Positions 3,315 through 63,972 of a stretch of DNA of 64,000 nucleotides are shown here, one piece after another. A program made the translations under genes and the position numbers. The stretch lies in the NCBI GenBank assembly GCA_036337435.1, contig JAYZEG010000010.1:25171-89170 (forward strand), in the 5' to 3' direction. The notes beneath the pieces were generated by a model, which made no database searches, was not told the DNA's origin, and saw only the letters and a list, made by a program, of their open reading frames with translations. Each line of letters starts with the position of its first letter. Positions within the stretch are counted from its first letter, which is position 1. Source of the DNA: Myxococcota bacterium (GTDB lineage: Bacteria > Myxococcota_A > Bradymonadia > UBA7976 > UBA1532).

Positions 3315-3332
3315 CCGGCGTTCGGACGGCGG

Positions 3333-5702: not shown

Positions 5703-5744
5703 ATCCACTTGATTGAGTAGTGTGTCAGTCGGTGACACAGGCAA

Positions 5745-5776
5745 AAAAAAACGCCCCCAAAGGTGGAGGCGTTTTC
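5745..5776. terminator. bidirectional rho-independent terminator between convergent ppgK and the TSP3 gene
   Basis: AAAACGCC-(12 nt loop)-GGCGTTTT forms a perfect 8-bp stem, flanked by an A9 run upstream and a T-run downstream. Confidence 0.7.
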
Positions 5777-5797
5777 TACGTCAGCGCAATGTCGTCA

Positions 5798-7162
5798 TCA
5801 ACGACGTCGGCGAACCCGAATCAGACCGATTCCTCCAAAGAGGGCGACCATGAAGAGTGCTGCGAGTCCGTTGCCTGAGGCTGCGCTGGCTGCACACCCA
5901 CCTGCGTTTGCGTCTGTGGCTTGAGGCTCACCCGACGCTTTGAGTCGCATTCTGTATTGTGCAACTGTTTCGACTTCGGTTGTGTTTGCATCTTCAAACG
6001 CTGTCACAACCTCGACCATGATGGTGTACTCACCTGGCATGTCTGGAATGACTGTCGGGCGGTCTGCCAGGTAGTGATACTCAAATGGGCTTGATTGCTC
6101 TACCGAGCCTTGTGGAGCCGCAATCTTTGCTCGTGAACCGTCTGGGCTTGAGACAATGGCCCATGTGTAACGGAACTCGCGGTTCGTCCGGTTAATGAAT
6201 AAGCGAAGTGGTACTTCATCGCCGGTATTGGCCATCAGGCTCGGGGAGTAGACGGTCAAAGTCGCGTCTGGGTCGAGGCAATTCTCTACGTCGCCGTAGA
6301 CGGCATAGCAGAAACTTGGGTCGCAATCATCGCCCTTGCCATCACGGTCAGCGTCGATCTGACCTGGATTGACCATGAGTGAGCAATTGTCGAACTTGTT
6401 GGCGATTCCATCGCCGTCTCTGTCCGAATCGCACTTGTCTCCGAGGCCGTCGCCATCGGTGTCGAGTTGGTCTTCGTTCGCGATGGTTGGGCAGTTGTCC
6501 TTGCTCAAAGGATCAACTTCACTCACGCCATCTCCGTCCACATCTGGGAAACAAATCGACCGCTCATCTTCAGAAGGAGCCTCGAGTGTCGCATTGTACG
6601 GACAAGGATCCTCCAGATTGGTTTTCAAGTCGCCATCGATATCATCGTCACACGCGTCACCAATGCCGTCTCCGTCAAGGTCCGGCTGTCCTTCTTCCCC
6701 GGCTTGATTGGGCACCAACATGCAGTTGTCGAGCTCGTTTTCGATGTTATCATTGTCAATATCCGCATCGCAGGCGTCGCCCTTCGCGTCTTCATCCAGA
6801 TTGAGCTGGTCTTCATTACGCGTGTTGACGCAATTGTCGCAGCCGTCTCCAATGCCGTCACCGTCGCGGTCAAACTGCTCCGGATTCCGAACACGTGGAC
6901 AGTTGTCGGAGTTATCCTCAATGCCGTCGTCATCGAAGTCATCGGCGCGCTGGTACGTGTCGCCAAGGTCGGTGTTATTAATGAGGACGGCACCGCCCCC
7001 GCCACCGCCGCCGCCGCCGCTCATATTCGGCGTTCCGCAGTCGCCGAAGTTGTTATCGCACTCAAATGGTGCGTCCTGCGCTGATACGACGAGCGGGAAC
7101 ATGGCCGCTGCCGTAAGCGTAACGAGTAAACGAATCGATGCCGCCATAATGTGTCTCCTCAT
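5798..7162 (-). CDS. secreted thrombospondin type-3 repeat (Ca-binding) protein with MYXO-CTERM-like sorting tail
   Basis: Signal peptide, then a poly-Gly9 run and more than 10 DxDxDGxxDxxDNCP TSP3 repeats. The C-terminus ..GGCAASAASGNGLAALFMVALFGGIGLIRVRRRR has a GC motif, a hydrophobic helix and an R4 cluster. Confidence 0.8.
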   Translation of the reverse strand: MRRHIMAASIRLLVTLTAAAMFPLVVSAQDAPFECDNNFGDCGTPNMSGGGGGGGGGAVLINNTDLGDTYQRADDFDDDGIEDNSDNCPRVRNPEQFDRDGDGIGDGCDNCVNTRNEDQLNLDEDAKGDACDADIDNDNIENELDNCMLVPNQAGEEGQPDLDGDGIGDACDDDIDGDLKTNLEDPCPYNATLEAPSEDERSICFPDVDGDGVSEVDPLSKDNCPTIANEDQLDTDGDGLGDKCDSDRDGDGIANKFDNCSLMVNPGQIDADRDGKGDDCDPSFCYAVYGDVENCLDPDATLTVYSPSLMANTGDEVPLRLFINRTNREFRYTWAIVSSPDGSRAKIAAPQGSVEQSSPFEYHYLADRPTVIPDMPGEYTIMVEVVTAFEDANTTEVETVAQYRMRLKASGEPQATDANAGGCAASAASGNGLAALFMVALFGGIGLIRVRRRR

Positions 7163-7364
7163 TTATCGGCTGTCTAGAGAGTAGCAAAAGTGCCAACTGT
7201 ACTCATTAAAGCACACGTCCGCGACGGCTTTGCCTATCCCTGTCTCATTAACTACGTTTGTAAGGACAGCGTTCGCGTCCAAATCTAACCCCACGCTATA
7301 AAGAATGACGATCAAAACCGGTTTTTTCAAGATATTTCAGTGTCGGGATCGCGAAATTATCGGG

Positions 7365-8291
7365 TCAATCGTCGGATTGAAACTCGGGGTCGAGAAAAAT
7401 AATCTGATCGGCACGCGTCGAAAGTCGTAACATCGTGCGATATCCGGATGTTTTTCTTTCGAACAAATCTTTCACATCGAGCACACCGGCCTTCCTCAAT
7501 TGGCTGCGCAGTTTGCCCCGCTCAAAACCAAGCCGTTCGATCCCCGAATTGGGATTACCGCCGAGTTTGAGCCACTGTTGATGACTCTCCGGTGCTGTGA
7601 GCCAGCCGCCCTCCGTGTAACTCTCATCTCTGCGGACCAATGCATAGGCAGCCAGTACGCGGACGCACTCCCCTGTGACTCTGACAGAGCTTTCGTCGCT
7701 TTCGAAACAGGCCCAAAGCTCCGAAACTGAAATTCGCAGGCTGCATTCATCGATGATCAAATGAAGTTGAGCCACCAACGTCGGTGCACCGAGAACCGGA
7801 AAGAAGAGACGATATAGCGAGGTCCCCGAACTGACAAGATCACCATCTTTCAACTCGTAGGATGCGTCAGCTCCATGTTCCCATCCAAACCGATAAAAGC
7901 GGTCATCGACACACTCGTAGAGGTCATCTAACGCATCTCCGCTGACGAACTCATTGTTTTCGACATTCATCGCGAATGCTTGTGGCGGAGTTGTATCGGT
8001 TAATTCAGCAACGATGCCGTCATCGATGGTAATGCGGGCGACACGGCGACTTAGGCTATTGATGATACGCCAGCCGTTTTGATCAACCGAACCGGACCCT
8101 CTCGTTTCATCGACACGATTGAGCGGTCGCCAACCCCAATTTTGACCTAACCAACGAATCTCAAACCAGAACTGAGGCACACTGGATGAAAAAAACCGGG
8201 CATGACAGCTCCAATGCCGCCCAACAAGACAAACCTCTGATATGGGAATGATTCGCGTAGTAGAACCATCTGTTAATTTCAACGCCCCCAT
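7365..8291 (-). CDS. FHA-domain protein (hypothetical)
   Basis: N-terminal segment ..TRIIPISEVCLVGRHWSCHARFF...FWFEIRW.. resembles an FHA fold. The rest is uncharacterised. Confidence 0.5.
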   Translation of the reverse strand: MGALKLTDGSTTRIIPISEVCLVGRHWSCHARFFSSSVPQFWFEIRWLGQNWGWRPLNRVDETRGSGSVDQNGWRIINSLSRRVARITIDDGIVAELTDTTPPQAFAMNVENNEFVSGDALDDLYECVDDRFYRFGWEHGADASYELKDGDLVSSGTSLYRLFFPVLGAPTLVAQLHLIIDECSLRISVSELWACFESDESSVRVTGECVRVLAAYALVRRDESYTEGGWLTAPESHQQWLKLGGNPNSGIERLGFERGKLRSQLRKAGVLDVKDLFERKTSGYRTMLRLSTRADQIIFLDPEFQSDD

Positions 8292-8487
8292 TTAACGCCC
8301 CACACAGTCCACACGTCTCCACTAATCAAACCACGCCCACCGAAAGCACGTGGTGCGCAAATATGACTGGGATGCAGTTATGATATGAATTGAGCTGCTG
8401 ATTTTGCAAGAGGCGTTAGACAAAAACCCCCTCTACACAACCAGCAGACCAATGGGTTTAGAGCCCTTCGAAAGACTCCAGAGCCCC

Positions 8488-41649: not shown

Positions 41650-43116
41650 TTAGTTGGAATCATCTACAGATAAAGGCCCCAAATAGTCACCCTGTGCATC
41701 ATACAAGAAAATCGGGAGCCCAAAGGTTTTCAACCCATCCAATATTTTCGCCTTGTCACCGGCAACAATGATTTGAAACTGCTCGGCAACTGCGTGTTTC
41801 TGAGCAGCGTCGCGCGCCATACTCAGGGAGACTTGAGCCACCTTCTTCATGCGACTATGATACCAGTCGAGTCCTCGTTTCTTAGCGACCAGACCACCTA
41901 ATTCGCCAGCCACATTTCCCATCCGTTCGAACCGTCCGGGAATCCCCTTGATCATACTGCTCTTCGCGCTCTCGACTTCATCCGCGGTGATTGGCTTATC
42001 GCCAGAAACCAGTCTGATTTCTTTGAGAATTTCATCAATGCTTGCTTTCGTTGTCTCACCTTTCACCTTGGCATAGATCAAATAGGCACCATCATCCAAA
42101 AGCCTCATGAACGCCCCTCGAGCACCGTAGGTATAGCCTTTGTCTTCTCTCAGGTTCATGTTGACCCGCGCCGTGAATGCACCGGCAAAAGCTTTGTTGA
42201 AGACCTCGCTCTGAAAATAGTCGGGTGCTTTGGCACCCTCTGCCTGTCTAATGGCGATGACCATAGACTGCGATGAGCCAGGAAAATCGACGAGCCGAAT
42301 CCCCACATTTGAAGGCTTCGTGGATGGCTCAATGGGACTCTCAACTTGGCGACCGGTCCATTGTCCGAGATTGTTCTCTAAGGCGGCTTCCAGTGCTGTC
42401 CTCTCGCAATCACCGACGACCACTACGGTTGCACCGTTGGGTTTAATGAGTTTTTCATATTGGAGTTGGACGTCCTTCCGAGTGACCTGTGCAAGTGTTT
42501 TGCGGACGCCATTGGGTGAATAGGCACCGTAGCCTGACCCGTTCATCACCCGCCTCGCAACAACGAAGGCAACCGATGATGGATTAGATTCACTCGTCAG
42601 GGCCCGAGCATCTCGTTGCGCCTTGACACGATTGAAGTCGGTCTCAGCGAACCCAGGCTTGGTTAAAATCTTAGCCAAGAGCGATAAAGACGCGTCAAGT
42701 TTATCGGCCAGCAAAGACATCGAAAGGGTTGCCGAGTCGATATCCACCCTGACACTGTAGTCTGTGGCGAGTTGAGAAAATGCGTCTGATAACTCGAGAG
42801 CACTCAGGCCATCCGCGCCCTCATCCAGCAGGTCGACCATTAAGGCCGTTGTGCCAGCGCGGCCACCAGGGTCTGTCGCCGATCCCTTCGGAAAAACCAA
42901 CTGTATTGCGAGGAGCGGTGCTTGGGTTTGCCTGACGAACCAAACATTGAGTCCATTGCTGAGAGTCCATGTCTCGATCTCGGGCTGACTCCAAGGTGAG
43001 GCTGCCGCCGGCCCGGGCAGTTTAGAGCGGTCAGGCCCGCCTTGTTTTTGGACCTGACCACCGCCACAGCCTATGGCGAACATGAGGACCGTAAAAAAAG
43101 ATATCGCCCACTTCAT
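41650..43116 (-). CDS. M16-family peptidase, non-catalytic (M16B-type) subunit, lipoprotein
   Basis: Insulinase-fold sequence lacking HxxEH. Start MKWAISFFTVLMFAIGCGG overlaps the upstream gene's stop in ATGA. Confidence 0.75.
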   Translation of the reverse strand: MKWAISFFTVLMFAIGCGGGQVQKQGGPDRSKLPGPAAASPWSQPEIETWTLSNGLNVWFVRQTQAPLLAIQLVFPKGSATDPGGRAGTTALMVDLLDEGADGLSALELSDAFSQLATDYSVRVDIDSATLSMSLLADKLDASLSLLAKILTKPGFAETDFNRVKAQRDARALTSESNPSSVAFVVARRVMNGSGYGAYSPNGVRKTLAQVTRKDVQLQYEKLIKPNGATVVVVGDCERTALEAALENNLGQWTGRQVESPIEPSTKPSNVGIRLVDFPGSSQSMVIAIRQAEGAKAPDYFQSEVFNKAFAGAFTARVNMNLREDKGYTYGARGAFMRLLDDGAYLIYAKVKGETTKASIDEILKEIRLVSGDKPITADEVESAKSSMIKGIPGRFERMGNVAGELGGLVAKKRGLDWYHSRMKKVAQVSLSMARDAAQKHAVAEQFQIIVAGDKAKILDGLKTFGLPIFLYDAQGDYLGPLSVDDSN

Positions 43117-44522
43117 TTGGCCCCTCCTGTTGGCGCAGTCTTGGCTGGTTCCTCGACGGGCAACACATCGATTCGTAAATGCGGCTTTTGCAACCACAGG
43201 TTGGCCGCCTCAAATACCGTATCTGCGGTGAGTTCAGTGTACCGAGCCAAATCGGTTCCAAGATAATCGGCCCGCCCCTTGATATGGTGGTATGTACTTA
43301 AAAGCTGGGCTCGTGACAGCACGCTCTCGACCCGTCCGTAAAAGGACTTCTTGTACGCATTGATGGCCTTAGCCATTTCCTCAACGCTCGGTTTGGTTGC
43401 GAGGGCGTCACCAAGTGCTTTTTTTAATGCCCCTTTGAGATCCTCAATTGACGTCCCAGGCGCAGCGACTGCCTGCACGACAAAGAAACTGCCCAAGGCC
43501 ATGGAGACCTGATACGCATTCACTCGCGTCGCGATCTTTTGGTCAAAAACCAGTGGCTTGTACAAGCGGCTTGTCTTGCCAGCACTCAAAACCGAGGCCA
43601 AAATATCCATCTCTGAATCGCCCTTTGCGTACAAAGCCGGCGTATGCCAAGCCATGACGATCATGGGCAGTTTGACTTCATCCCTGTCTACGATGTGTTT
43701 GTTGGTCGCCAATGATGCGGGAGAATGTTTTGGCCACGGTGTACGCTTGCCCCTCGGCAAGTGACCGAAATATCGGCGAACCAAGGCTTTGGCCTGCTCC
43801 ATTTCGAAATCACCCGCGATGGTCACGATGGCGTTGGTTGCTGAATAATGCTGCTTGAAAAACGATTTTACGTCGTCCAAGCTCGCTGCCGTCAGGTCCG
43901 CATGAGAGCCAATGGTCGGATGCCCATAGGGGTGTTTTTTTGGGTACAGCTGCTCATAGAGGTGTAACCAGACTCGGCCGTAGGGACGGTCTTCATAGGA
44001 TTGTCGACGCTCATTTTTGACGACATCTCTCTGGTTATCCAATTTCTTCATAGTCAACGCAGGCAGCAAATTTTCCATCCGATCGGATTCTAACCAGAGG
44101 GCGAGTTCCAGATACTCTTTCGGGACTCTTTCATAGTAATTGGTTCGGTCTACACTGGTCGTTCCATTAATGGCTGCGCCGATGGGTTGTAAGGGCTTGA
44201 AGTATTCATCGTTGTAATTCTGAGAACCCTGGAACATCAGATGTTCAAATAAATGCGCAAACCCACTTCGGCCGACTTTCTCATGAGCAGACCCCACCAT
44301 GTACCGCACCTCAACAGCGACGACAGGAAGCCGAGTATCTCGGCTGAGAAGTACGGTCAAACCATTATCTAGAACCCATGTTTCAACGTCCACCGTGGGT
44401 GGATTGGCCGTCTTGGATTGGGTGTTTGAAGGCACCTGCTCTGCCGTAGGTGTCCCGACATCGGCCTGACTTTGGAATGGCACAACGAAAGCAAGAGCGA
44501 TAAAAACATGCAGCCGACTCAA
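43113..44522 (-). CDS. M16-family zinc peptidase (pitrilysin-like), catalytic subunit
   Basis: Signal peptide. Inverted zincin motif HLFEHLMFQGS (HxxEH) and downstream Glu region ..NGTTSVDRTNYYE.. Confidence 0.8.
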   Translation of the reverse strand: MSRLHVFIALAFVVPFQSQADVGTPTAEQVPSNTQSKTANPPTVDVETWVLDNGLTVLLSRDTRLPVVAVEVRYMVGSAHEKVGRSGFAHLFEHLMFQGSQNYNDEYFKPLQPIGAAINGTTSVDRTNYYERVPKEYLELALWLESDRMENLLPALTMKKLDNQRDVVKNERRQSYEDRPYGRVWLHLYEQLYPKKHPYGHPTIGSHADLTAASLDDVKSFFKQHYSATNAIVTIAGDFEMEQAKALVRRYFGHLPRGKRTPWPKHSPASLATNKHIVDRDEVKLPMIVMAWHTPALYAKGDSEMDILASVLSAGKTSRLYKPLVFDQKIATRVNAYQVSMALGSFFVVQAVAAPGTSIEDLKGALKKALGDALATKPSVEEMAKAINAYKKSFYGRVESVLSRAQLLSTYHHIKGRADYLGTDLARYTELTADTVFEAANLWLQKPHLRIDVLPVEEPAKTAPTGGAK

Positions 44523-44748: not shown

Positions 44749-45822
44749 TCAGTCACCACGAATCCAAGGATCGCTCCAATCCATTCGGTCAACGATGCTG
44801 ATGTCACTCAGTGCGAGAAGAAAAGCCTCGAGATCATCCAGTTCGGAGTCGGTCAAATGAAGCGGGCGTATGCGGGGATCTTTATACGGGTTCGTCCGGC
44901 CGTCTCCCACGAAGGGTCCGGACGTAATCAGTCGACCCCCCGCATTGTAATGCTCGAGAACGTCTCGCAGGGTGGCACCGGTTCCGTCGTGATAGTAGGG
45001 CTTTGTGAGCGCAAGATGCCGAAGTGTCGGTACCCGAAAGCGGCCGATATCTGAAGGCTGCCCCGTCAGCTCATAAAGTCCTTGTCGAGAGCTCGGGTAA
45101 GTCCCGGTCTCCAGAGAATATAGACCGGTATTGAACCAGCCATGCCGACCATCCATGGGCTGGTCAAAATCGGCACCACCGTGGCAGCTGGAACAAAGGG
45201 TCCGACGTGAATAAAAGAGTGCCTCTCCACGCTTTACGACCTCATCGATGGCTGTTTCATCGCCGGCTAGAAAACGATCGTAGGGGGCATCGTAAGTCGT
45301 GAGAGACGAGACAAACGCCGCGATTGATAGGGCCAACAAGTCGAGGTCCAAGGCTGTGGCACCAGCGGCCACCAGTAACTGTTGGTATCGATGATCACCA
45401 TTGAGCTCATCGAGCATGTCGTCGATTGATTCGGCGGCCCCCATTTCGATGGGCTCGGTCCCCAACAAGGGCACCAAAAGTTGCTGAGCCAGCGAAACAG
45501 GACTTGGGTCGACCCAACTGAGCGTTCTACGTTCGCTCACGTTGAGTAAGGTCAATGTGTTTCGCGGGTGTATGGCACCCGTTGTCCCGACAGCACGAAC
45601 AAAACCATCCGTGAATCCTTTGGCCTGTTCGTGACAGATGCCGCAAGAGCGGTCATTGTTGAAGGACAAGCGACGCTCGTAGAACAGATGGCGTCCGAGC
45701 TCCACGAGGGGCGAAGATGTCTGGTCTCTGGCCTGTTCAGCTTGGGTGTGACATCCGGAGGACAATGAATAGAGCAGCAGAGCGCCCAAGCCAATTGCTG
45801 AGTTTATCTTCAGCATGGTCAT
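44749..45822 (-). CDS. di-haem cytochrome c peroxidase family protein (CcpA/MauG/MbnH-like), lipoprotein
   Basis: Two CxxCH motifs (CGICH, CSSCH), ..LGRHLFYERRLS.., and the conserved ..PTLRHLALTKPYYHDG.. segment. Lipobox LSSGC. Confidence 0.8.
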   Translation of the reverse strand: MTMLKINSAIGLGALLLYSLSSGCHTQAEQARDQTSSPLVELGRHLFYERRLSFNNDRSCGICHEQAKGFTDGFVRAVGTTGAIHPRNTLTLLNVSERRTLSWVDPSPVSLAQQLLVPLLGTEPIEMGAAESIDDMLDELNGDHRYQQLLVAAGATALDLDLLALSIAAFVSSLTTYDAPYDRFLAGDETAIDEVVKRGEALFYSRRTLCSSCHGGADFDQPMDGRHGWFNTGLYSLETGTYPSSRQGLYELTGQPSDIGRFRVPTLRHLALTKPYYHDGTGATLRDVLEHYNAGGRLITSGPFVGDGRTNPYKDPRIRPLHLTDSELDDLEAFLLALSDISIVDRMDWSDPWIRGD

Positions 45823-45841
45823 CTGCGAGACACCGACAAGG

Positions 45842-46441
45842 TTAGTCTAATTTCATAAATGAGAGGTGTACGGGCTCATTGGCGTCGCCGGTAATTCGGA
45901 CAGTGAATGAACCCCAGGCATGATAGAGATGGCGGTGGTCTATGAGCCCTGAGTCGTCGCAAGCACCATTCCAACTCACGCTTTGAACCGGCTCGATATC
46001 GCAATTTTCATCCAGAATCACGAGCGACTCTTGATACCTCAACGAAGTGGCGATCGTGATGGACCACTCGGGAATCTCTAGGGTGAAATAGCCAACGCCA
46101 GCGTCGGGCAAACGGACAGATAACGCTGTATCCTGGCGTGGAGTAACCACGACTTGGCCCGCAGAATTCGCATCTGCGACGGCGATAATCTCCGTCGGAA
46201 CAGTGCCTAAAAGAGAGCAGGCAGCCTGGGCCAGCGCATCGTCGGGGCCAACTGGCAGTTGAGGTCGTCCCAGAGGCTGCCCCTCCTCCACTGGCTCGGA
46301 CACACCAACCTCTGTTGCAGACCCACCAGAGATACAATCATCTCGCTGCCCCCCCGTATTTCGAGAGGACGAGTCGTGGCCGCATGCAATCAGACTGGTG
46401 CAGAGAATCGGCAGAGCAAAAAACGTACGCAGTGTTGTCAT
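45842..46441 (-). CDS. hypothetical lipoprotein, His-rich C-terminus, partner of di-haem peroxidase
   Basis: Lipobox LIACG. ..GLIDHRHLYHAWGS.. near the C-terminus. 19-nt gap to the downstream CCP gene on the same strand. Confidence 0.55.
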   Translation of the reverse strand: MTTLRTFFALPILCTSLIACGHDSSSRNTGGQRDDCISGGSATEVGVSEPVEEGQPLGRPQLPVGPDDALAQAACSLLGTVPTEIIAVADANSAGQVVVTPRQDTALSVRLPDAGVGYFTLEIPEWSITIATSLRYQESLVILDENCDIEPVQSVSWNGACDDSGLIDHRHLYHAWGSFTVRITGDANEPVHLSFMKLD

Positions 46442-46683
46442 GCGGGGACCACTTTCAATTGAATTGACTTATTTCGGAGCGAAGGGGGTCTTTGGATACC
46501 TTGCACACGTTTGTCCCCGTCAGTTACACTTAACATAGATGCATGTCGCTCTGACAAGGTTGAAAGCAACTTTATCAGGCTAGACATTATCTTCTTGTAG
46601 CCGAGATCAGTTGGCGAGGGTGTTTGAGGTGCCGTAATTTGGCTCACCGGGACAGAAGCTGCGACCGAAGCGTGAGGAAAAAA

Positions 46684-47538
46684 ATGACCGTGCAACATTC
46701 AGGTCGACGTCGTCATCCGGGCTCTTTTCTGAACCGAGTCATTGGGTGTGTGGCTGTGATTGCGTCCTGCTTCGTATTCGGCTGTGGCTCGCCAGATGCC
46801 AGTACAGAAGAACGCGTAGCAGTCGAAATCGCATTCTCTGTGAACGCGGGCGGTGCACCATTTCAATGCGGTCAAGCCGTAGCTGACCTGGGCACGGAAC
46901 GGACAACAGTCGCGATGACAGACATGCGTTTCTATGTCCATGACATCGCTTTCATTGACGAAGATGGTCGCGCCCAACCAATCAGACTGAACGACGACGG
47001 CATTTGGCAGAAAGACGGCGTTGCACTACTCGACTTCGAAGATGGGTGTGCGAACGGAACAACGCAAATGAATAGCCGAATCAGGGGCACGACCACAGAC
47101 GGCCCGTATACCGGCCTACGCTTTCGTATCGGTATCCCAAACCAGCTCAACTCACCACAAACGGTTCTGGAGAACCGGGGCAGTCCACTCAATCAGGCGT
47201 CTTTATTCTGGTCGTGGCGTTCCGGCTACAAGTTCATGCGAATCGATGCAGACAGCAATGCATTTCGGTTTCACCTCGGGTCTGTTGGATGTGATGACGA
47301 CTTCAATTGCCAATTTGAGAATATTCCAACGATCTTGCTCAGTGACTTTACTTGGCAAACTCAAACCGTGACCTTGGATCTCGACGACCTACTCGAGGGA
47401 ACAAACCTGAGTGAAAACACGACGGGTACGGCGCCGGGCTGCATGGGCGACCCAGACGATCCAGAATGCAGCTCGATTTTCGCACGTCTGGGACTCAGCT
47501 CAACCGAGGCTACGGCCTTTTCTGTACGGGATAATTAG
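46684..47538 (+). CDS. MbnP-like candidate (secreted partner of MauG/MbnH-type peroxidase)
   Basis: Lipobox CFVFGCGS. About 285 aa with four Cys pairs and conserved Trp (..SLFWSWRSGYKF..). Sits 11 nt upstream of a di-haem peroxidase. The MbnP call rests on architecture and context, not on a verified motif. Confidence 0.5.
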   Translation: MTVQHSGRRRHPGSFLNRVIGCVAVIASCFVFGCGSPDASTEERVAVEIAFSVNAGGAPFQCGQAVADLGTERTTVAMTDMRFYVHDIAFIDEDGRAQPIRLNDDGIWQKDGVALLDFEDGCANGTTQMNSRIRGTTTDGPYTGLRFRIGIPNQLNSPQTVLENRGSPLNQASLFWSWRSGYKFMRIDADSNAFRFHLGSVGCDDDFNCQFENIPTILLSDFTWQTQTVTLDLDDLLEGTNLSENTTGTAPGCMGDPDDPECSSIFARLGLSSTEATAFSVRDN

Positions 47539-47549
47539 GTCATTTAAGA

Positions 47550-48740
47550 ATGGGAAATCAGACCGAACGGAACACAAATGCGACAAGCGGGTTTATCCTG
47601 CGCTGGTTGCTCATGGTCTGCTCATTTCCAGCTATGGTGAGTTGTGGCGATAGTGGTATCGATGCGTCCGAGACCCCGTTTACGCTTCAAATCCCGGAGC
47701 ATTTCCCAACCGCTCCAGTCCCTGAAGACAACCTGCCCACTGCAGCGAAATTAGAGCTGGGACGCTTCCTTTTCTACGATCCCCTTCTCTCGTTTAACGA
47801 GTCGTATTCATGCGCGACATGCCATCAGCAAGCACTTGCCTTTACAGACGGCCGACCGGTTGCAGTGGGCGCATCGGACCAAAGCCACAGTGTCGGATCG
47901 ATGTCGCTGGCCAATGTCGGCTATGCTGCGACCCTTGGATGGGGCAATCCAACTTTGACATCCTTAGAGGCTCAAGCTCTGGTCCCCATGTTTAACGAAG
48001 ACCCCGTCGAATTGGGACTCAGCGCACTCACCGAGCAAGACCTCTTGGATAGACTACAGGCTGAAGACCGCTATCAACGGTTATTTCCGGCTGCTTTTCC
48101 GGCAGATGACGAACCGTTTACGGTGGGCAATATCGCCAAGGCCATCGCCACCTTCGAGCGCACTATAATCAGTGCCAATTCCCCCTACGACCGCTACATG
48201 AAAGGGGATCGAAGTGCCCTGGATGCGTCAGCGATTCGAGGCATGAACCTCTTTTTTTCAGAACGCTTGGAATGCTTTCATTGTCACGGAGGCTTTGCAA
48301 TGAGTGATTCCGTGAAAAGCCCCGACTTCCCGTTTACCGAACGGCCGTTTCACAATAATGGCATGTACAATCTCGGCGGGTCTGGCCAATACCCCAGCAA
48401 TCAGGGTGTCTATGAGCTCACTCGTGAACGGCAAGACTTAGGCCGATTCAAAGCACCAACGTTACGTAATATCGCTGTGACAGCCCCTTACTTACACGAT
48501 GGTTCAATCTCGACTCTCGACGAATTGATTGATTTGTATGCCGCCGGGGGCCGCCAAATCAGCGATGGACCCCATGCCGGAGACGGAACAGCGCATCCAA
48601 ATAAGAGTGTTTTTATCGTCGGCTTTATTCTCAATGATAACGAGAAGCAGGACTTGATGGCGTTCTTGAATTCGCTGACGGATGAGGAATTCCTGAAAAA
48701 CCCTGAGTTGAGCGACCCATACAAGGACACGACAGATTGA
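47550..48740 (+). CDS. di-haem cytochrome c peroxidase family protein (MauG/MbnH-like), lipoprotein
   Basis: CATCH and CFHCH haem motifs; ..LGRFLFYDPLLS.. and ..PTLRNIAVTAPYLHDGSISTL.. Confidence 0.8.
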   Translation: MGNQTERNTNATSGFILRWLLMVCSFPAMVSCGDSGIDASETPFTLQIPEHFPTAPVPEDNLPTAAKLELGRFLFYDPLLSFNESYSCATCHQQALAFTDGRPVAVGASDQSHSVGSMSLANVGYAATLGWGNPTLTSLEAQALVPMFNEDPVELGLSALTEQDLLDRLQAEDRYQRLFPAAFPADDEPFTVGNIAKAIATFERTIISANSPYDRYMKGDRSALDASAIRGMNLFFSERLECFHCHGGFAMSDSVKSPDFPFTERPFHNNGMYNLGGSGQYPSNQGVYELTRERQDLGRFKAPTLRNIAVTAPYLHDGSISTLDELIDLYAAGGRQISDGPHAGDGTAHPNKSVFIVGFILNDNEKQDLMAFLNSLTDEEFLKNPELSDPYKDTTD

Positions 48741-48979
48741 AATATCCCGTCCTTCTGGTCGTGCTTGTCGTCAGCACACTGTCCTGTCGAAATCAAATCG
48801 GTCACCCATGCAAAGAAAAAGGCGACTGTGCACTGGGGCTTTATTGCGACCTGGAACGGGAAATCTGCGATGATCGAGGCAAACTGCTCAAAAAAAAGGC
48901 CGAGAAAATCTACGTGTACCCAATTCCTCCAAAAACGGCCCCCGCACACCCCAAGGGGATGCCGATTCAGGTGCGATAA
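48737..48979 (+). CDS. small Cys-rich lipoprotein, translationally coupled to the peroxidase
   Basis: ATGA overlap with the upstream stop. MKYPVLLVVLVVSTLSC signal with lipobox. Four Cys (CKEKGDCALGLYCDLEREIC). Confidence 0.45.
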   Translation: MKYPVLLVVLVVSTLSCRNQIGHPCKEKGDCALGLYCDLEREICDDRGKLLKKKAEKIYVYPIPPKTAPAHPKGMPIQVR

Positions 48980-49068
48980 ATGAGTACCAATTTGGCTGAA
49001 TGGAGAGTCCTCGCGTAACTAAGTGCAGATGCTCAAACTCTCTCTAACGGAGAAAAGGGAGGGTATGT

Positions 49069-49854
49069 ATGTCAAAATTATTGCTGATGGTCTTTGTCTT
49101 TACGGCGGTTGGAGCGCAGGCCCATAAACCGAGCTTCTCGAACGGTGAATTTAAATCCTTTGACACCGCGTGGCCTATCCAGAACATGGCGACCTCAATC
49201 GTTCTCTACCACGACGTGACCTGTGAATCAGACCAACTTTGGCTCGAATTCAGCTCCGTTGGTGAAGAGGAACTATTCGTTCAGTTAGGTGTTCCCGTGA
49301 TAGAGCGGCTGACGGACTATCGCCCGTCTATCGCCATCCTTGCCGCCGGTCTCCCCCCCATAAACGATACCGTCCCTTTTGAAATCCCCGATGGACTCGG
49401 TGGCATCGTCTACCATTCGAGCCAAATCGAAGCACCGACTGACTTCTACGAGCCGTTTTCACAAACTGAATCGTGGATTCTCTTGGAGACGACAAAAATC
49501 ATAGAGCAAGCCGGAACGGGTTATGTTGTCGCCTGGGTTCCAGAAAACACCACGGGAAAACTCTGGGTCGCCATCGGAACGGTTGAAGATTTCAGTGACG
49601 TTGAGCCGACCGACTTTTCATCTTGGCTCGAGCAAACCCAAGAATACCATGAGACGGGGCCCTACTCCGATACGCAGCAGTCAGAAGTGTCCTGCCAGCC
49701 TGTGGATGAGATGAACCCTGTATCGGCCGCGTCAGCGGGCTGCGCGACAGCGCACGGCCACCCGCAGCAAAGTTCATTCGTCATGTTGGCCGTGCTTGGA
49801 CTGATCATGCTCCGCGGTCGACAAAAGCACCTTCATCGTCGGCAGCGAATTTGA
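49069..49854 (+). CDS. secreted protein with predicted N-terminal His after signal cleavage and MYXO-CTERM-like tail
   Basis: Signal ..AVGAQA|HKPSF leaves His as the first mature residue. C-terminus ..SAGCATAHGHPQQSSFVMLAVLGLIMLRGRQKHLHRRQRI has a GC motif, hydrophobic helix and basic cluster. Confidence 0.6.
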   Translation: MSKLLLMVFVFTAVGAQAHKPSFSNGEFKSFDTAWPIQNMATSIVLYHDVTCESDQLWLEFSSVGEEELFVQLGVPVIERLTDYRPSIAILAAGLPPINDTVPFEIPDGLGGIVYHSSQIEAPTDFYEPFSQTESWILLETTKIIEQAGTGYVVAWVPENTTGKLWVAIGTVEDFSDVEPTDFSSWLEQTQEYHETGPYSDTQQSEVSCQPVDEMNPVSAASAGCATAHGHPQQSSFVMLAVLGLIMLRGRQKHLHRRQRI

Positions 49855-51736: not shown

Positions 51737-53905
51737 ATGAAAATCTGGATCGTAACCTGCTTGACTGGACTCATCTACATGGGCTGCGGCCAGGGTGCAT
51801 CTAGCACCAACCAAGATAACGCAGATGAAAAAAAGGCCAATCTACCGAGCCGTGTTCAAATTGAACGAACGCTATCAGATAATGGCACTATCGGCCTGGC
51901 GGGCTTCGACTCACCTCATCTCATTCTCCAAAACCTGATAAGCATTGTGGGTGAGATCAAAGCAAAGGCTGAAAAGACGTCCCCGAACGATGTGCTCGAT
52001 GCCATAACAAAGATCTCGAGTGCGGAAGAACGGACCAAGTTCATCGGCTTTGACCCGGCGACGGAAGCCGGTTGGAAATCCATCGGGATTGATCCTGGGC
52101 TGGGCCTGTATGTTGTCGGTGAGAAGACCCTTTTTCAACCGAGAAACCCGTTCATGTTTGGATTCGGATTAGAAAGCCGTGAAAAGTTCCTTAAATTCCT
52201 TCATTCGAAAGGGAAACAGACCCAATTCGTTAAGGGAGAGAACGGTGTTGATACAGTCGTAGCAAACCAAAGGGTCATGGGGCTGCTCGGTCAGCGAGGT
52301 GCCTACACCTACTTGCTGCCGCTCTCGAAAAACACCAAGAATTTGGAGCAGCTCAAAGTTTCATTCAGCAACTTCGTAAAGTCTCCGTCTAAGGATTCAG
52401 CTGGCTCGAAAATCCCAGGTCAAAGCGGGGCAGCGCAGTTCATCGGACTGATAAATTTCGACCCTCTTTTTGACATCATTAAAGAGACCGGACAAGGGCC
52501 ACAAGCCGACATTGAATTTTACAAACAGACGCTCAAGACCTTTGGCATCCGAAACGGCTCCGGGGTGATGGCGGCCCACCTCAAGGTCAAAAAAACAGGC
52601 CTAGAGGCCTTACAAAAAGTATTCGGGTCATCGACAAAAATGACCGCTGCAAAATTCTACGGAACGAGCGACTGGGCGTTAGTGCGGCTGTCTGTAAACT
52701 GGTCGGAATTCTTTCAAGGCGTATCCGAACTAATGCCCCCGTCCATGGCCCAACAGCGCATGGTAGTCACCATGGCGCAGACGGCCATCGCAACAAGCAT
52801 GGGGTTTAGCCAAGAGACGTTCAGAGAGGCTTTATCTGGGCATATCATGTTCGGTGTGGATCTCGCATCTGTCAAGAGCGACCAGCCTGAGGTTTTATTT
52901 TCTGAGACGCGGGCGGTCATCGCTTTGGAGACCAAAAACGCCAAGGCAGCGAAAGTGTTCACCGATACGGTGATGGCAAAACTGGCGACCCATCCAGACC
53001 CCCGATTGATACCCAAAGCCCAGAGCTTCGGGGACTATGATGGCTACCATTGGCCAGCTGCTCCAGGACGTCCGGCGTTGGCACTTGCCGAGGGTGCCAT
53101 TCTCATCGGTCCAAATGCGGACAGCGTCAAGCAAGCACTTGAGCGGTCCAAAAAAAACAACTTTGCAAGTACCCAATCCGGAGTCTCAATTCAGGCTGAT
53201 GGCATCATTTTCGGATACCACGTGTCCTATCATGATGTTCTGAAGATGATTGTTAGAGTCGCGCGCTCGTCAAAAAACCAAAATCAAACCGACCGAGAGG
53301 GTATCGCGGCGTTAGCGAAGATGGTGAATCAATCAAAAACGTCGGAACCAATCGAGATGTCTTTGAAACTCGACGATGGAATCAAATTTGAGCACGAAGG
53401 GGAATTGATCGGGATGAAGTTCATATCGGGCATCATTTCAGCCATTGCCATCCCTGCTTTCACAGAACTCCAAAAGAAATCGAAGAGCACCGAAGCAAAG
53501 GTGAACCTCCAGCGCTTATCTATGGCGCAACGTACGTACTACGAGGCCGACATCGCTGATGCCAGCGGTAAGTTACTGCCACAACAATTTGCAGGCCCAT
53601 CCAAACTGGTGCCCGGTAACCCGACCAAGTTCATGTGTAAAGACGGGAAGCCCATCCAGTTCAAGCCGACTCCGGAAACATTTGCGGCTCCTGTTTGGCA
53701 GGCGTTGAACTTCGCGATAGAAGACCCGTTTCGATATGCGTATCAGGTCGAGGTTGACGGAACGGGCACACTGTCCAGATTCACGGTGCGCGCCGTGGGC
53801 GATCTCGACTGTGATGGACAATTGTCTACCTTTGAACGGTTTGGCAGTATCCAAAAAGGGGGTGCTGTTTCTGTTGGGCGGTCCTCGAAAAATGAGCTCG
53901 AATAG
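51737..53905 (+). CDS. large lipoprotein with C-terminal type IV pilin-like domain
   Basis: Lipobox LIYMGCGQ. Residues about 590-722 (..GIISAIAIPAFTELQKKSKSTEAKVNLQRLSMAQRTYY... CKDG...DLDCDG) resemble a pilin alpha1 helix plus a disulfide-bonded D-region. Being internal, the domain cannot be PilD-processed. Confidence 0.65.
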   Translation: MKIWIVTCLTGLIYMGCGQGASSTNQDNADEKKANLPSRVQIERTLSDNGTIGLAGFDSPHLILQNLISIVGEIKAKAEKTSPNDVLDAITKISSAEERTKFIGFDPATEAGWKSIGIDPGLGLYVVGEKTLFQPRNPFMFGFGLESREKFLKFLHSKGKQTQFVKGENGVDTVVANQRVMGLLGQRGAYTYLLPLSKNTKNLEQLKVSFSNFVKSPSKDSAGSKIPGQSGAAQFIGLINFDPLFDIIKETGQGPQADIEFYKQTLKTFGIRNGSGVMAAHLKVKKTGLEALQKVFGSSTKMTAAKFYGTSDWALVRLSVNWSEFFQGVSELMPPSMAQQRMVVTMAQTAIATSMGFSQETFREALSGHIMFGVDLASVKSDQPEVLFSETRAVIALETKNAKAAKVFTDTVMAKLATHPDPRLIPKAQSFGDYDGYHWPAAPGRPALALAEGAILIGPNADSVKQALERSKKNNFASTQSGVSIQADGIIFGYHVSYHDVLKMIVRVARSSKNQNQTDREGIAALAKMVNQSKTSEPIEMSLKLDDGIKFEHEGELIGMKFISGIISAIAIPAFTELQKKSKSTEAKVNLQRLSMAQRTYYEADIADASGKLLPQQFAGPSKLVPGNPTKFMCKDGKPIQFKPTPETFAAPVWQALNFAIEDPFRYAYQVEVDGTGTLSRFTVRAVGDLDCDGQLSTFERFGSIQKGGAVSVGRSSKNELE

Positions 53906-61305: not shown

Positions 61306-63972
61306 TTAGTCATCGTCTTGACACAGTTGATTTAAACCGCTGTTTGGCGGAATACAAACAGACTCGACGCGGCCATCGGAGATATTACAGCAGATAAAGC
61401 CGTCCGGACAAGACAGGTCTCGGCAGGGCATTAAACAAATGTCACCAACAACACGGGCCAGGTTCGCGCAGGATTCACCGTTTTCGCCTTGAGCACAGTC
61501 ATCATTATCGTTGCAAAATGGAGCATTTCGCCGATTGCTAGGCCACGCACTGATCTCCCGTTCTGACCCAGCGAGAACTTCGATGCATTCGCCACGACTG
61601 CAGCGGAAGCCTTCATCACAATTGATTGCCTCACACAACCCTTCGTCCCGAGTGCGATCAATTTCTTCACAGACATCGATTGCATTTTCGTTTGGAATAC
61701 AGGCATCAATCGTTTGTCCGTCACGCTCAAAACCCTCGCGACAAAAGTACCCTGCCGGACACGCCCCTGCATCACAGTTGGGCGCGCAAAATCGACTCCC
61801 AAAGTTGTCGTTGTAGCGAACGCAAACATCACCCTCACTGCAATCGGACTCATCGTCGCACGCCCGACAATTGCCTTCGCTGCATTGACCTGTATCCGGC
61901 ATACAGAGTTCGCCAAAGTCGCAGTCTATATCAGCACAGAGGTCAACGCATTGGTTGTCACGACAAACCTCGGTTTCAGCGCAATCAGCACATGGTGCCG
62001 ACACGCACCCGTCACATTCACAGATGAGCTGACGGTTCTGAAAACCACATCGCGTGTCGTTGACTCGGTCGATGCGCTGGACGGAACAATCTTCCGGATT
62101 AAACTGAAAAACATCCCAAATGGGTCTGTTGACGATACCGCGGCCAAGTGCGTCCTCTGGCCCCATAGGCTTCGGTCCGAACAGCACGGGGTCATTGTCA
62201 CCACAAACAAATGAAACCGTGGCCGTTGCCTCACCTGAGAAAAGGAGAACACCCACTGTGTACAAACCAGCGTCTGGAGACGCCATGCGAAGGATTTCCT
62301 CTGATGCACCGGGCCCACCCCGCGCATCACGGTTGAGCCCAGGCGTGCACCAATCAGGTGATAGATTGCCCGGTGCGCAGTCCCATTGGGGGTCCGTATA
62401 GCCACTGGCCCGTGGATGCAATAGATGCAGATCCAAATCAATCTGCTCATCGGACCGCCATTGCAATGTAATGCGGACTCTGTCGGCCACCTCATCACAG
62501 GCATCGCCGACGCCGTCTTGGTCCGCATCCAGCTGATTTGCGTTAGCGATGTCTAAGCAATTGTCACAGACATCACCGACGCCGTCCTCGTCAACGTCAT
62601 CATCTTGGTTATTCTCGACGAAGGGGCAGTTGTCTTCATCGTTTGCAACGCCGTCACCATCAAAATCATCTGCCTCGCAGGCATCACCGATGCCATCTCC
62701 GTCGTCATCCGCTTGATTGAAATTAGCCTCAGCGGGGCAATTGTCGCACGCATCGCCACGGCCATCATCGTCGGTGTCGGTCTGCACTAAATTAAACCGG
62801 TCTGGACAATTATCATCGGCATCGGCAATGGTATCGCCGTCTCGATCAGCGATCTCACAAGCATCCCCCTGACCATCATTATCGGCATCGGCTTGATTGC
62901 CATTGGCTACCTCGGGACAATTGTCGCACCGATCACCAACGCCATCATCATCGGTGTCCTCTTGTCCTGGGTTTGCTCGATCAGGACAGTTGTCTATGCT
63001 GTCGAAAACGTCATCGTCGTCACTGTCTACACATGCATCACCGCGACCATCGCCATCAGCATCGGCCTGACCTGGGTTTTCGAGTCCAGGGCAATTATCG
63101 CATCGGTCACCGACTCCATCGCCGTCTTCATCACGCTGACTGTTATTGGCGACGAACGGACAGTTGTCTTCGGCATTGACAATGCCATCCATGTCCTCGT
63201 CTCCATCAGCATCAAGGTCACATGCATCTCCAGCACCATCGCCATCACTGTCCTCTTGGTCGGGATTGGCAACATCGGGACAATTATCGTCATCGTCTGC
63301 AATGCCGTCATCATCGCCATCGGTGATCATAGCTCCACCAACACCGCCTGCACCGCCTGCACCGCCTGCACCACCTCCAGCACCTGCACCGCCTGCACCG
63401 CCTTCAGCACCTGCGCCGCCTGCACCGCCTTCAGCACCTGCGCCGCCTGCACCGCCTTCAGCCCCTGCGCCGCCTGCGCCGCCTTCGGCACCTGCGCCGC
63501 CTCCACCACCTGCACCACCTGCACCACCTGCACCGCCTGTGCCGCCTGTGCCGATCTCTGAACACTCGGCGTTCCACCGACACGCGCCAGTCGAATCTTC
63601 GACGCACTCAACGGATGGCCCAGAGCCGTCTGGACAGCTCGCAAAGTCAGGCATTTCGCCACAGTCCTCGGGCTGGCAAGTAGACGCGGCACCATCCTGA
63701 TCGCCGCCCGAACCGGCTGCGCCGTCGATTTCAGAACCGATGGGGCCTCCATCGCCGGAGTCGCTGTCCGCACTATTGTCTTCGATGCACCCCACCATGG
63801 CCACGCTTAAAATGATTGTGAAAGCCAATGGTCCAAATCTTAAATACTTCACTGGTCTAAGCCTCCTGAGCGCTGGTATTGCTGTCTTCACGGCCACTTC
63901 GTATCCGTCCAAGCTATCCACCGCCAAATCTGAATGACTCGCAGAGCGACGCACCCGTGTCCCTCCATACAC
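61306..63972 (-). CDS. large secreted protein: Gly/Ala-rich repeats + about 12 thrombospondin type-3 repeats + Cys-rich C-terminal region
   Basis: (GAEGGAGGAGA)n tract, repeated DxDxDGxGDxCDNCP TSP3 motifs and many CxxC/CxDG pairs at the C-terminus. The exact start is uncertain; lipobox-like ..SVAMVGCIED. Confidence 0.75.
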   Translation of the reverse strand: MYGGTRVRRSASHSDLAVDSLDGYEVAVKTAIPALRRLRPVKYLRFGPLAFTIILSVAMVGCIEDNSADSDSGDGGPIGSEIDGAAGSGGDQDGAASTCQPEDCGEMPDFASCPDGSGPSVECVEDSTGACRWNAECSEIGTGGTGGAGGAGGAGGGGGAGAEGGAGGAGAEGGAGGAGAEGGAGGAGAEGGAGGAGAGGGAGGAGGAGGVGGAMITDGDDDGIADDDDNCPDVANPDQEDSDGDGAGDACDLDADGDEDMDGIVNAEDNCPFVANNSQRDEDGDGVGDRCDNCPGLENPGQADADGDGRGDACVDSDDDDVFDSIDNCPDRANPGQEDTDDDGVGDRCDNCPEVANGNQADADNDGQGDACEIADRDGDTIADADDNCPDRFNLVQTDTDDDGRGDACDNCPAEANFNQADDDGDGIGDACEADDFDGDGVANDEDNCPFVENNQDDDVDEDGVGDVCDNCLDIANANQLDADQDGVGDACDEVADRVRITLQWRSDEQIDLDLHLLHPRASGYTDPQWDCAPGNLSPDWCTPGLNRDARGGPGASEEILRMASPDAGLYTVGVLLFSGEATATVSFVCGDNDPVLFGPKPMGPEDALGRGIVNRPIWDVFQFNPEDCSVQRIDRVNDTRCGFQNRQLICECDGCVSAPCADCAETEVCRDNQCVDLCADIDCDFGELCMPDTGQCSEGNCRACDDESDCSEGDVCVRYNDNFGSRFCAPNCDAGACPAGYFCREGFERDGQTIDACIPNENAIDVCEEIDRTRDEGLCEAINCDEGFRCSRGECIEVLAGSEREISAWPSNRRNAPFCNDNDDCAQGENGESCANLARVVGDICLMPCRDLSCPDGFICCNISDGRVESVCIPPNSGLNQLCQDDD

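Follow-up and report, generated by a model that had tools for sequence, protein, structure and literature searches.

Copper sites that contain kynurenine are known from three families of partner proteins, MbnP, MopE and CorA; in MbnP, the kynurenine is believed to be put in place by MbnH, and for both MopE and CorA, a like role has been proposed for a di-haem peroxidase whose gene is co-transcribed with that of the partner (PMC11951088, PMC11892367, PMC3912023, PMC3621798). In MauG, the six-coordinate haem has His/Tyr ligation, and MauG-type enzymes carry out cross-link and tryptophylquinone chemistry on two tryptophans, as in methylamine dehydrogenase (PMC6405878). Here, we describe a locus within a 64-kb stretch of DNA (the window) from a marine myxobacterial genome, in which two di-haem enzymes related to these systems lie side by side, each behind a different partner lipoprotein.

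The six open reading frames that the first-pass annotation assigned to this locus are all real and correctly placed (Table 1), and the spacings that it gave were borne out by measurement (19 nt between P199 and CCP1, 11 nt between MbnP and MbnH, and 242 nt in the divergent region). As also claimed, both peroxidases carry two CxxCH motifs apiece and no more (C60/C210 in CCP1 and C88/C242 in MbnH); no further ORF of at least 90 aa in the window has one. The gene set of the cassettes is found together again in seven independent lineages, so its layout is not a product of chance, and identical proteins are recorded under VYA30_02485 and VYA30_02505 (a Myxococcota MAG; names from NCBI). M16 genes and P261 flank both cassettes in the window. 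A search for an MbnT/TonB transporter near the locus had been suggested, and the window ORFs that were scanned against Pfam included neither a TonB receptor or MbnT nor any methanobactin gene, cop or other copper-related gene, or regulator. Within the divergent region, alignment with the sister genome (L005) reveals two conserved blocks (46500-46535 and 46555-46592), the second of which contains the imperfect palindrome AAGGTTGaaagCAACTTT; a motif scan found the blocks in the close relative only, and no sigma-70 consensus was found between 46442 and 46683. These blocks are candidate promoter or operator elements.

Table 1. Features of the two-cassette locus (coordinates are those of the window).
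Feature	Position	Strand	Length	Description
CCP1	44749-45822	-	357 aa	Lipoprotein di-haem MauG/MbnH-type enzyme
P199	45842-46441	-	199 aa	Lipoprotein, unannotated family
Divergent intergenic region	46442-46683	.	242 bp	Candidate promoter/operator elements
MbnP-family lipoprotein	46684-47538	+	284 aa from ATG	WxW motif
MbnH-family di-haem lipoprotein	47550-48740	+	396 aa	Two CxxCH
P80	48737-48979	+	80 aa	Small Cys-rich lipoprotein, TTG start
P261	49069-49854	+	261 aa	Secreted, predicted mature N-terminal His19

The plus-strand cassette had been likened to the "metallo-mystery pair," and in the HMM check proposed at the time both proteins exceed the NCBIfam cut-offs: MbnP scores 241.9 bits against TIGR04052 (cut-off, 140) and matches PF20243 at 2.3e-36, and MbnH scores 459.3 bits against TIGR04039 (cut-off, 362.85) and matches PF03150 at 8.5e-45. 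MbnP is a lipoprotein, as originally described, with a length of 284 aa rather than 285 aa; an alternative upstream TTG start would give 304 aa, but we chose the ATG because both it and its GAGGA Shine-Dalgarno sequence are kept in the syntenic locus L005. Its WxW motif (W176-S-W178), together with H86, H197, and M254, is invariant across four orthologues. By homology with the Methylosinus proteins, MbnH would use H2O2 to oxidize a tryptophan of this motif to kynurenine, which would complete a copper site in MbnP; it is only by analogy with MbnP that a copper role is suggested for the locus.

The minus-strand enzyme, CCP1, matches PF03150 at 7.5e-34 and scores 328.4 bits against TIGR04039, which places it under the cut-off of that model. 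Among solved structures, it matches MbnH best (6E1C; 3.9e-71), with canonical cytochrome c peroxidases (CCPs) at ~e-27 and MauG at e-13, and it shares 42% identity with the MbnH of the window. Besides the CxxCH motifs at 60 and 210, CCP1 retains the inter-haem Trp103, and alignment offsets put Tyr292, which is aligned to Tyr330 of MbnH, at the axial-ligand position. We take the residues at this position to be Met258 in the Nitrosomonas europaea CCP, Met275 in the Pseudomonas aeruginosa CCP, and Tyr294 in MauG. Both clades pooled, 13 of 14 enzymes have the axial-position Tyr, and the L019 enzyme has Phe. The presence of a second MbnH-like enzyme beside a different partner is supported, and this architecture is conserved. 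The cassettes had also been read as duplicates of one another, but CCP1 and its partner are not a recent copy, since identity between the clades is only 36 to 44%, versus 43 to 75% among P199-adjacent and 69 to 87% among MbnP-adjacent peroxidases; eight alignment columns are fixed differently in the two clades. Judged by sequence, CCP1 is an old paralogue of MbnH, about 40% identical to it.

The partner of CCP1, P199, has its lipobox cysteine at residue 20; a variable acidic linker then leads into a beta-sandwich core (residues ~65 to 199) that holds the C75/C161 pair (one disulfide), W126 within P-E-W, and H174-x-W176-G. Its family, which is unannotated, numbers about 106 clusters and shows the motifs P-[DE]-W and H-x-W-G. 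Across ~105 aligned domains, the cysteines are the most constant residues (C75 in 95/97 and C161 in 104/104), followed by W126 (87/103), H174 (88/105), and W176 (88/105); about 16% of domains are without W176, and most of those deviating from the standard H174/W176 motif show H-W instead. Distant two-domain members have His/Asp-rich linkers, which are typical of metal binders. The description of P199 itself as His-rich did not hold up, as it has 5 His in 199 residues, a single one of which is conserved across the family; there is no invariant Met. Known copper ligands are two His in MopE and CorA, and His plus Met in MbnP.

In nine of the 11 loci examined (nine independent loci), a P199-family gene lies directly 5′ of a CCP1-clade gene, and the stop codon of the former often overlaps the start codon of the latter. 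This order persists among enzymes that share as little as 46% identity and in different genomic backgrounds, and three of the nine linked loci stand alone, with no MbnP/MbnH pair nearby; the distant family member L018 has no adjoining peroxidase. Some marine Myxococcota and Bradymonadia have both pairs side by side, in divergent or convergent orientation, and their continued adjacency suggests that the two pairs act in one pathway.

On balance, we lean modestly toward the view that the locus comprises two parallel, anciently diverged pairs of MauG-type enzyme and substrate, in which CCP1 modifies a tryptophan of P199, P80 is a substitute, and P261 is a neighbor. Beyond family membership, paralogy, gene order, and conserved residues, all of which are observed here, we infer the modification chemistry on P199, its target residue, and the metal. 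All four proteins of the pairs are lipoproteins and would be exposed to the periplasm, and the CCP1 clade would be dedicated to the P199 family, apart from MbnP/MbnH. CCP1 would oxidize one of the two tryptophans that are nearly invariant in P199; W176 in H-x-W-G is the likeliest target, with His174 and Trp176 predicted to project from one side of a beta-strand. This would leave a kynurenine-type metal site derived from Trp, with copper as the most likely metal. In favor of this view are the closeness of CCP1 to MbnH, its haem features and axial Tyr, the two separate clades, the gene order, the conserved P199 residues, the His/Asp-rich linkers, and the kynurenine precedents; against it are the single conserved His and the lack of an invariant Met, the domains without W176, the L018 member with no adjoining peroxidase, the Phe of the L019 enzyme, and the absence of copper-related, TonB receptor, or regulator genes among the scanned window ORFs. 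The P199 family is probably a new class of substrate for protein-oxidizing chemistry.

An unlikely alternative, close to the reading of the first-pass annotation, is that all six genes form a single copper-acquisition module, with P261 as a histidine-brace copper binder by virtue of its His1 and P80 as a coupled accessory. The N-terminal claim itself is sound: His19 follows an AxA-type cleavage site and is invariant among 23 aligned family members, such that a mature N-terminal His is strongly supported by the alignment. P261 is secreted and has, besides its jelly-roll domain, a hydrophobic/basic tail at the C terminus; its fold is of the ColG collagen-binding/PPC type and not that of LPMO or YcnI, as had been supposed, and the jelly-roll comparison led us to reject CopC as well. 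The tail was described as MYXO-CTERM-like, and six of the 23 family members do match the MYXO-CTERM model, but P261 does not. Its family occurs with no MbnP/MbnH nearby in three other lineages (L006/L007, L008, and L009), making P261 probably a mere inherited syntenic neighbor whose membership in a module is doubtful. Conversely, L011 has both cassettes and no P261; in L009, the P261 homologue is arranged divergently beside an M16 peptidase, and the cassettes in the window look like an insertion between old neighbors (the M16 genes and P261). As for P80, the gene begins with TTG, so that the sequence it shares with the stop of MbnH is TTGA and not the proposed ATGA; this overlap is kept in L005. 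The "four-Cys" label is right for the residues beyond the lipobox, although the lipobox Cys brings the total to five. Compared with its L005 counterpart (82% amino acid identity), P80 has substitutions distributed 11/5/34 over the three codon positions and 26 synonymous versus 12 non-synonymous codon differences, a pattern that marks it as a genuine gene subject to purifying selection. It had no match in HMM searches for a family and is present in the two closest genomes only, whereas five more distant relatives (L001, L002, L003, L011, and L015) have a monohaem cytochrome c in its slot; on the reading that we favor, P80 takes the place of that cytochrome in this lineage, third in the mbnPH operon.

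We also doubt, rather strongly, that CCP1 is an ordinary periplasmic peroxidase for peroxide scavenging or electron transfer and P199 a structural, anchoring, or unrelated co-transcribed lipoprotein. The sub-threshold score against the MbnH equivalog, the generic binding-domain type of the P199 fold, and the absence of metal genes among the scanned window ORFs are compatible with such roles. However, CCP1 has Tyr in place of the axial Met of scavenging CCPs, is nearer to MbnH than to those CCPs by 44 orders of magnitude in E-value, and keeps to a strict partner-then-enzyme order with overlapping genes down to the enzyme identity given above; moreover, invariant Trp residues in the partner are what is expected of a MauG-type substrate.

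Quite improbable, too, is a MauG-style outcome in which CCP1 builds a W126-W176 cross-link or tryptophylquinone-type cofactor, making P199 a small redox or catalytic protein and not a metal binder. Such two-Trp chemistry is precisely what MauG-type enzymes perform, apart from the cysteines, nothing in the family is better conserved than the two tryptophans, and the strand order of the model would place both at hairpin turns that share one end of the sandwich (a topological inference only). Yet the conserved His174 beside W176 and the His/Asp-rich linkers better suit a metal site, CCP1 is far nearer to MbnH (e-71) than to MauG (e-13), and P199 is small, with no obvious substrate pocket or partner subunit.

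That P199 is a highly divergent relative of MbnP or MopE/CorA, and the second cassette nothing new, is very hard to credit, given that 0 of 52 family members match PF20243, TIGR04052, or PF11617, that hhalign puts the probability of a match to an MbnP profile at 2%, that MbnP, MopE, and CorA are absent at E ≤ 10 from a profile search of PDB sequences, that generic PPC/CBD domains outscore CorA by far, and that the P199 motif is H-x-W and that of MbnP is WxW. The HMM and fold checks suggested earlier for a likeness to MbnP, along with profile-profile comparison, gave it no support, and P199 was rejected as an MbnP-, CorA-, or MopE-like protein on HMM, profile, and fold comparisons.

The following described systems come closest to the two parallel pairs that we favor. 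The plus-strand pair belongs to the MbnP/MbnH system of Methylosinus trichosporium OB3b (PDB 7L6G and 6E1C), with the same partner-then-enzyme order, WxW motif, and two haems, but has no methanobactin operon or MbnT nearby and includes a coupled third gene (the Cys-rich mini-lipoprotein, or cytochrome c in relatives). Among paralogues, CCP1 is the one nearest to MbnH, and it too is encoded after a periplasmic partner that carries Trp, although it falls under the family cut-off and has a partner with no relationship to MbnP in either sequence or fold. In MopE/SACCP of Methylococcus capsulatus and CorA/CorB of Methylomicrobium album, a copper(I) protein at the cell surface has a kynurenine site and is co-transcribed with a di-haem peroxidase. 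P199 has no detectable sequence relationship to MopE or CorA and is a lipoprotein whose linker is acidic; where they bind copper through two His and kynurenine, it has one conserved His in H-x-W, a second conserved Trp, and a disulfide, and it occurs in Myxococcota and Bradymonadia rather than in methanotrophs. MauG, a di-haem enzyme with a His/Tyr haem, oxidizes two tryptophans of its partner, pre-methylamine dehydrogenase, via long-range electron transfer, and CCP1 retains the Tyr and the inter-haem Trp; nevertheless, CCP1 is only a distant relative of MauG (e-13), a mau operon is absent, and in place of a dehydrogenase subunit the partner is a lipoprotein domain of 15 kDa. Finally, BthA/BthB of Burkholderia are bis-Fe(IV) di-haem enzymes of cryptic substrate and function that, like CCP1, represent a MauG-type clade from sequence mining; BthA has no conserved adjoining candidate substrate, whereas CCP1 does, and an adjacent candidate can thus be named for a clade of this type.

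The locus is best supported as two parallel MauG-type enzyme-substrate pairs, in which the peroxidase CCP1 stands beside the 199-aa lipoprotein P199 and the peroxidase MbnH beside MbnP (together, MbnPH). All six ORFs proposed in the first-pass annotation are present at the coordinates that it gave, and its spacings and its count of two CxxCH motifs per peroxidase agree with ours, the gaps being 19, 11 and 242 nt; these two peroxidases are the only CxxCH-bearing ORFs of at least 90 aa in the 64-kb window. Some details of that description needed correction: P199, called His-rich, has just 5 His; MbnP is 284 aa long rather than 285, its ATG start being backed by a conserved GAGGA-ATG; and the 80-aa ORF P80 starts with TTG, making the overlap at its start TTGA and not ATGA. 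Recorded Myxococcota MAG products (NCBI names) are identical to P199 (VYA30_02485), to the 261-aa secreted protein P261 (VYA30_02505), and to CCP1.

Coordinates of the features discussed, in the window and in loci from other genomes (L001 to L018)
Locus	Feature	Coordinates	Strand
Window	Large secreted protein, first	5798-7162	-
Window	M16 peptidase gene pair	41650-44522	-
Window	CCP1	44749-45822	-
Window	P199	45842-46441	-
Window	Conserved intergenic block, first	46500-46535	
Window	Conserved intergenic block, second	46555-46592	
Window	MbnP	46684-47538	+
Window	MbnH	47550-48740	+
Window	P80	48737-48979	+
Window	P261	49069-49854	+
Window	722-aa lipoprotein-like ORF	51737-53905	+
Window	Large secreted protein, second	61306-63972	-
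L001	Cytochrome c after mbnH	3366-3728	
L002	cobW + CobW_C	944-2281	
L002	Cytochrome c after mbnH	about 7984-8300	
L003	Cytochrome c after mbnH	350-697	
L005	M16 peptidase gene pair	582-3418	
L009	Fused M16 gene	4939-7794	
L011	Cytochrome c after mbnH	about 3694-4100	
L013	M16 peptidase gene pair	2839-5579	
L015	Cytochrome c after mbnH	about 374-750	
L018	Neighbourhood of P0246, distant P199-family member	1221-3643	-

On the evidence of profile scores, motifs and gene order, MbnP and MbnH are a genuine pair, as first proposed: both proteins exceed their model cut-offs, MbnP with 241.9 bits against 140 for TIGR04052 and 125.9 against 27 for PF20243, and MbnH with 459.3 bits against 362.85 for TIGR04039. 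MbnP lies directly upstream of MbnH with an 11-nt gap, an order repeated in 6 other loci. Its WxW motif is W176-S-W178, and none of the candidate ligands H86, H197, and M254 varies among 4 orthologues; MbnH has its CxxCH motifs at 88 and 242, and its Tyr330 aligns with Tyr292 of CCP1 at the axial-ligand position. In Methylosinus, a Trp of the WxW motif is thought to be converted to kynurenine by MbnH, completing a His/Met/Kyn copper site (PMC11951088, PMC11892367), and the distribution of the pair reaches far beyond methanobactin producers (PMC3621798). The MbnPH half of the locus is, in this sense, already known.

CCP1 shares 42% identity with the MbnH of the window. It scores 328.4 bits against TIGR04039, under the 362.85 cut-off, but MbnH is nonetheless its best-matching family, and its best PDB match is likewise MbnH (6E1C, 3.9e-71, versus about e-27 for peroxide-scavenging CCPs and e-13 for MauG). 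Its partner gene falls outside the MbnP family, P199 having no MbnP match. CCP1 carries the MauG-type sequence features: two haem c sites (C60 and C210), an inter-haem Trp (W103, invariant), and a Tyr replacing Met at the distal ligand position of the six-coordinate haem. By alignment offsets, this residue, Tyr292, occupies what we take to be the position of Met258 in Ne-CCP, Met275 in Pa-CCP, and Tyr294 in MauG, and a Tyr is found there in 13 of the 14 enzymes compared. MauG has His/Tyr haem ligation (PMC6405878). In the PY[Y/L/M]HDG motif, the variable residue was considered as the axial ligand and rejected, as canonical CCPs carry Phe there and the ligand position is that of Tyr292.

The association of the two genes extends well beyond the window. 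Among eleven independent loci with a P199-family gene, nine have a CCP1-clade peroxidase as the very next gene in the same direction, frequently with its start codon overlapping the stop codon before it: the window; its closest, syntenic sister locus L005 (identical to L010 and L014); a Bradymonadia bin split over L012 and L013; L003/L004; L011; L002; L016; L017; and L019. The unlinked two are L015, where the contig ends with no clean ORF, and L018, whose distant family member has no peroxidase neighbour. MbnP/MbnH adjoins in seven loci, five times divergently and twice convergently, and the occurrence of both orientations argues for selected proximity over frozen synteny; the pair was not found within the roughly 5 kb or less per side examined at L016, L017, L018, and L019. 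Identity among peroxidases is 43 to 75% within the P199-linked clade and 69 to 87% within the MbnP-linked clade but 36 to 44% between them, and eight columns are fixed differently between the clades (in CCP1: R51, R58, N88, T89, L119, W229, L234, and R263); these eight residues are candidates for docking the partner. Since the peroxidases sort by partner and the clades are this divergent, the duplication is ancient, with each paralogue tied to its own partner family. The duplicated cassette of the first-pass annotation thus stands as two paralogous enzymes with different partners, with the proviso that the duplication is an old one. Two proteins of Enhygromyxa salina, P0132 and P0134, share 49 to 50% identity with CCP1. 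At L002, the P199/CCP1 cassette is preceded, ~4 kb upstream, by genes for a CobW-type metallochaperone GTPase (cobW plus CobW_C), a possible link of the cassette to metal homeostasis.

P199 itself has no match in Pfam, NCBIfam, or PDB sequences. A word-indexed search recovered nine relatives only; a full search with an HMM, covering 1.84 billion representatives, places 106 clusters in the family at E ≤ 1e-3. None of 52 aligned members matches a curated family, low-complexity linkers apart. Against MbnP, profile-profile comparison (hhalign) yields a probability of 2%; P199 has no MbnP fold match, and neither sequence nor fold homology to MopE*/CorA, with their two His plus Trp ligands, was found for P199. 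Family members have a lipobox Cys (at least 90% of the 52 aligned members) and a variable, acidic linker. Counted over about 105 aligned domains, the conserved residues are C75 (95/97), C161 (104/104), W126 in a P-[DE]-W motif (87/103), and H174 and W176 in an H-x-W-G motif (88/105 each); most domains departing from H-x-W have H-W instead. Substitution of W176 by His in distant members was considered and discarded, the profile alignment showing Ala, Gly, Lys, Pro, Met, or Thr instead. Two distant two-domain members, P0265 and P0273, have strikingly His/Asp-rich linkers (e.g., DDHDMDDDDHDM and HGDHDHGDDHGD); both retain the disulfide, together with an H-x-H stretch, and lack W176. Another distant member, P0246 of L018, is divergent to two ~375-aa proteins bearing the PF11617 "Cu-binding_MopE" motif.

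By analogy with MbnH, CCP1 would oxidise a conserved Trp of P199. The favoured target would be W176, because His174, two positions before it, faces the same side of the strand and because some distant members have His/Asp-rich linkers; together, these features suggest, again by analogy, that a kynurenine-type metal site could form on P199. The main alternative is a cross-link between Trp126 and Trp176, with which the strand order of a structural model is consistent, in that its topology (and topology only) would place the two turns that bear these Trp residues at one end of the beta-sandwich. W157, in the SWNGAC motif, is dismissed as the target: it is invariant in close relatives, yet only 30 of 105 family domains have it. 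We tentatively propose, holding slightly more doubt than confidence, that the P199 family makes up a fourth class, hitherto unrecognised, of proteins with a Trp-derived cofactor (a metal site of the kynurenine type or a cross-link between two Trp), matured by its own dedicated MauG/MbnH-type clade. In some marine Myxococcota, this system would act alongside MbnP/MbnH, the two forming a two-partner metal relay in the periplasm.

The third gene of the MbnPH operon differs between lineages. Judged by its pattern of substitution, P80 is a real gene: between the window and L005, it keeps 82% amino-acid identity and the TTGA overlap, with 11/5/34 substitutions at the three codon positions and 26 synonymous versus 12 non-synonymous codon differences. 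In five more distant relatives (L001, L002, L003, L011, and L015), the slot after mbnH is taken by a lipoprotein of about 110 to 120 aa, a monohaem cytochrome c with CxxCH and MPAF motifs that is unrelated to P80 and whose gene usually overlaps mbnH. A relocated copy of this cytochrome c was looked for elsewhere in the window and none was found, so the third operon gene has been swapped in the window lineage.

P261 is probably not a core component of the cassettes. Its predicted mature N-terminal His was upheld, H19 being invariant in 23 of 23 family members after an AxA-type site (cleavage judged by rule); the LPMO- or YcnI-type copper brace read into it was not, as neither fold nor sequence matched LPMO AA10, YcnI/DUF1775, or CopC. 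The MYXO-CTERM-like tail consists of GC, a hydrophobic stretch, then RRxxR; the window protein has no match to the sorting-signal model (TIGR03901) at E ≤ 0.1, and across the family, TIGR03901 is matched by 6 of 23 members and TIGR03382 by three. P261-family genes in L006/L007, L008, and L009 have no adjacent MbnPH, and L011 has both cassettes and no P261. P199 and P261, which share ColG CBD as their top match, were compared as possible homologues and showed no detectable sequence relationship (hhalign 11% over 13 columns). In three lineages (the window, L005, and L013), CCP1 lies next to two paired genes for M16 (insulinase-type) peptidases, and at L009 a fused M16 gene and a P261-family gene are divergent neighbours. 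That the cassettes are flanked by M16 genes and P261 in the window, together with the M16/P261 adjacency at L009, suggests insertion of the cassettes between old neighbours. Alternatively, the M16 enzymes may process the long-linker lipoproteins, by analogy with the conversion of MopE to MopE*.

The divergent intergenic region shares two conserved blocks with L005, in which the flanking coding DNA is 20 to 35% diverged at the protein level. The second includes an imperfect palindrome, AAGGTTGaaagCAACTTT, and may be an operator; the blocks are found only in this closest relative and were not found in more distant loci, so that an operator shared by all divergent loci was not found. No sigma-70-like promoter was found there, nor any excess of terminators. 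None of 30 further ORFs spread over the window and scanned with Pfam matched a TonB-dependent receptor that would answer to a nearby MbnT, or a methanobactin (MbnA/B/C) or cop gene; the neighbours identified include an OPT transporter, a thioesterase, a methyltransferase, the two M16 peptidases, a sodium:solute symporter, and an aquaporin. The 722-aa lipoprotein-like ORF has no Pfam match and 76% identity in L005, and contains an internal hydrophobic segment, GIISAIAIPAFTELQKKSK, resembling the N-terminal helix of type IV pilins, ~170 residues before its C terminus. Two large secreted proteins of the window bear multiple thrombospondin type 3 (calcium-binding) repeats.

The locus offers a natural comparison, with paralogous enzymes side by side, each beside its own unrelated Trp-bearing partner, and bears on how di-haem MauG-type enzymes choose protein substrates; it also brings to light a family of about 100 sequence clusters lacking a Pfam or NCBIfam model. 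Were P199 modified as proposed, the catalogue of protein-derived cofactors would be widened, the P199 domain (about 135 residues) would provide a small, tractable substrate for studies of long-range Trp oxidation, and handling of copper or another metal would be indicated in marine predatory bacteria without methanobactin. Were it not, the locus would remain a well-documented example of MbnPH with an unusual third gene.

To our knowledge, the only partner families known for protein-bound kynurenine copper sites are MbnP, MopE, and CorA. The literature searched, which did not extend to the primary MbnP and MbnH papers, held no description of the CCP1/P199 pairing. CCP1/P199 shares the pairing logic of MbnP/MbnH, MopE/SACCP, and CorA/CorB (PMC3912023, PMC3621798); unlike these systems, it combines an unrelated, unannotated partner family with a distinct enzyme clade.
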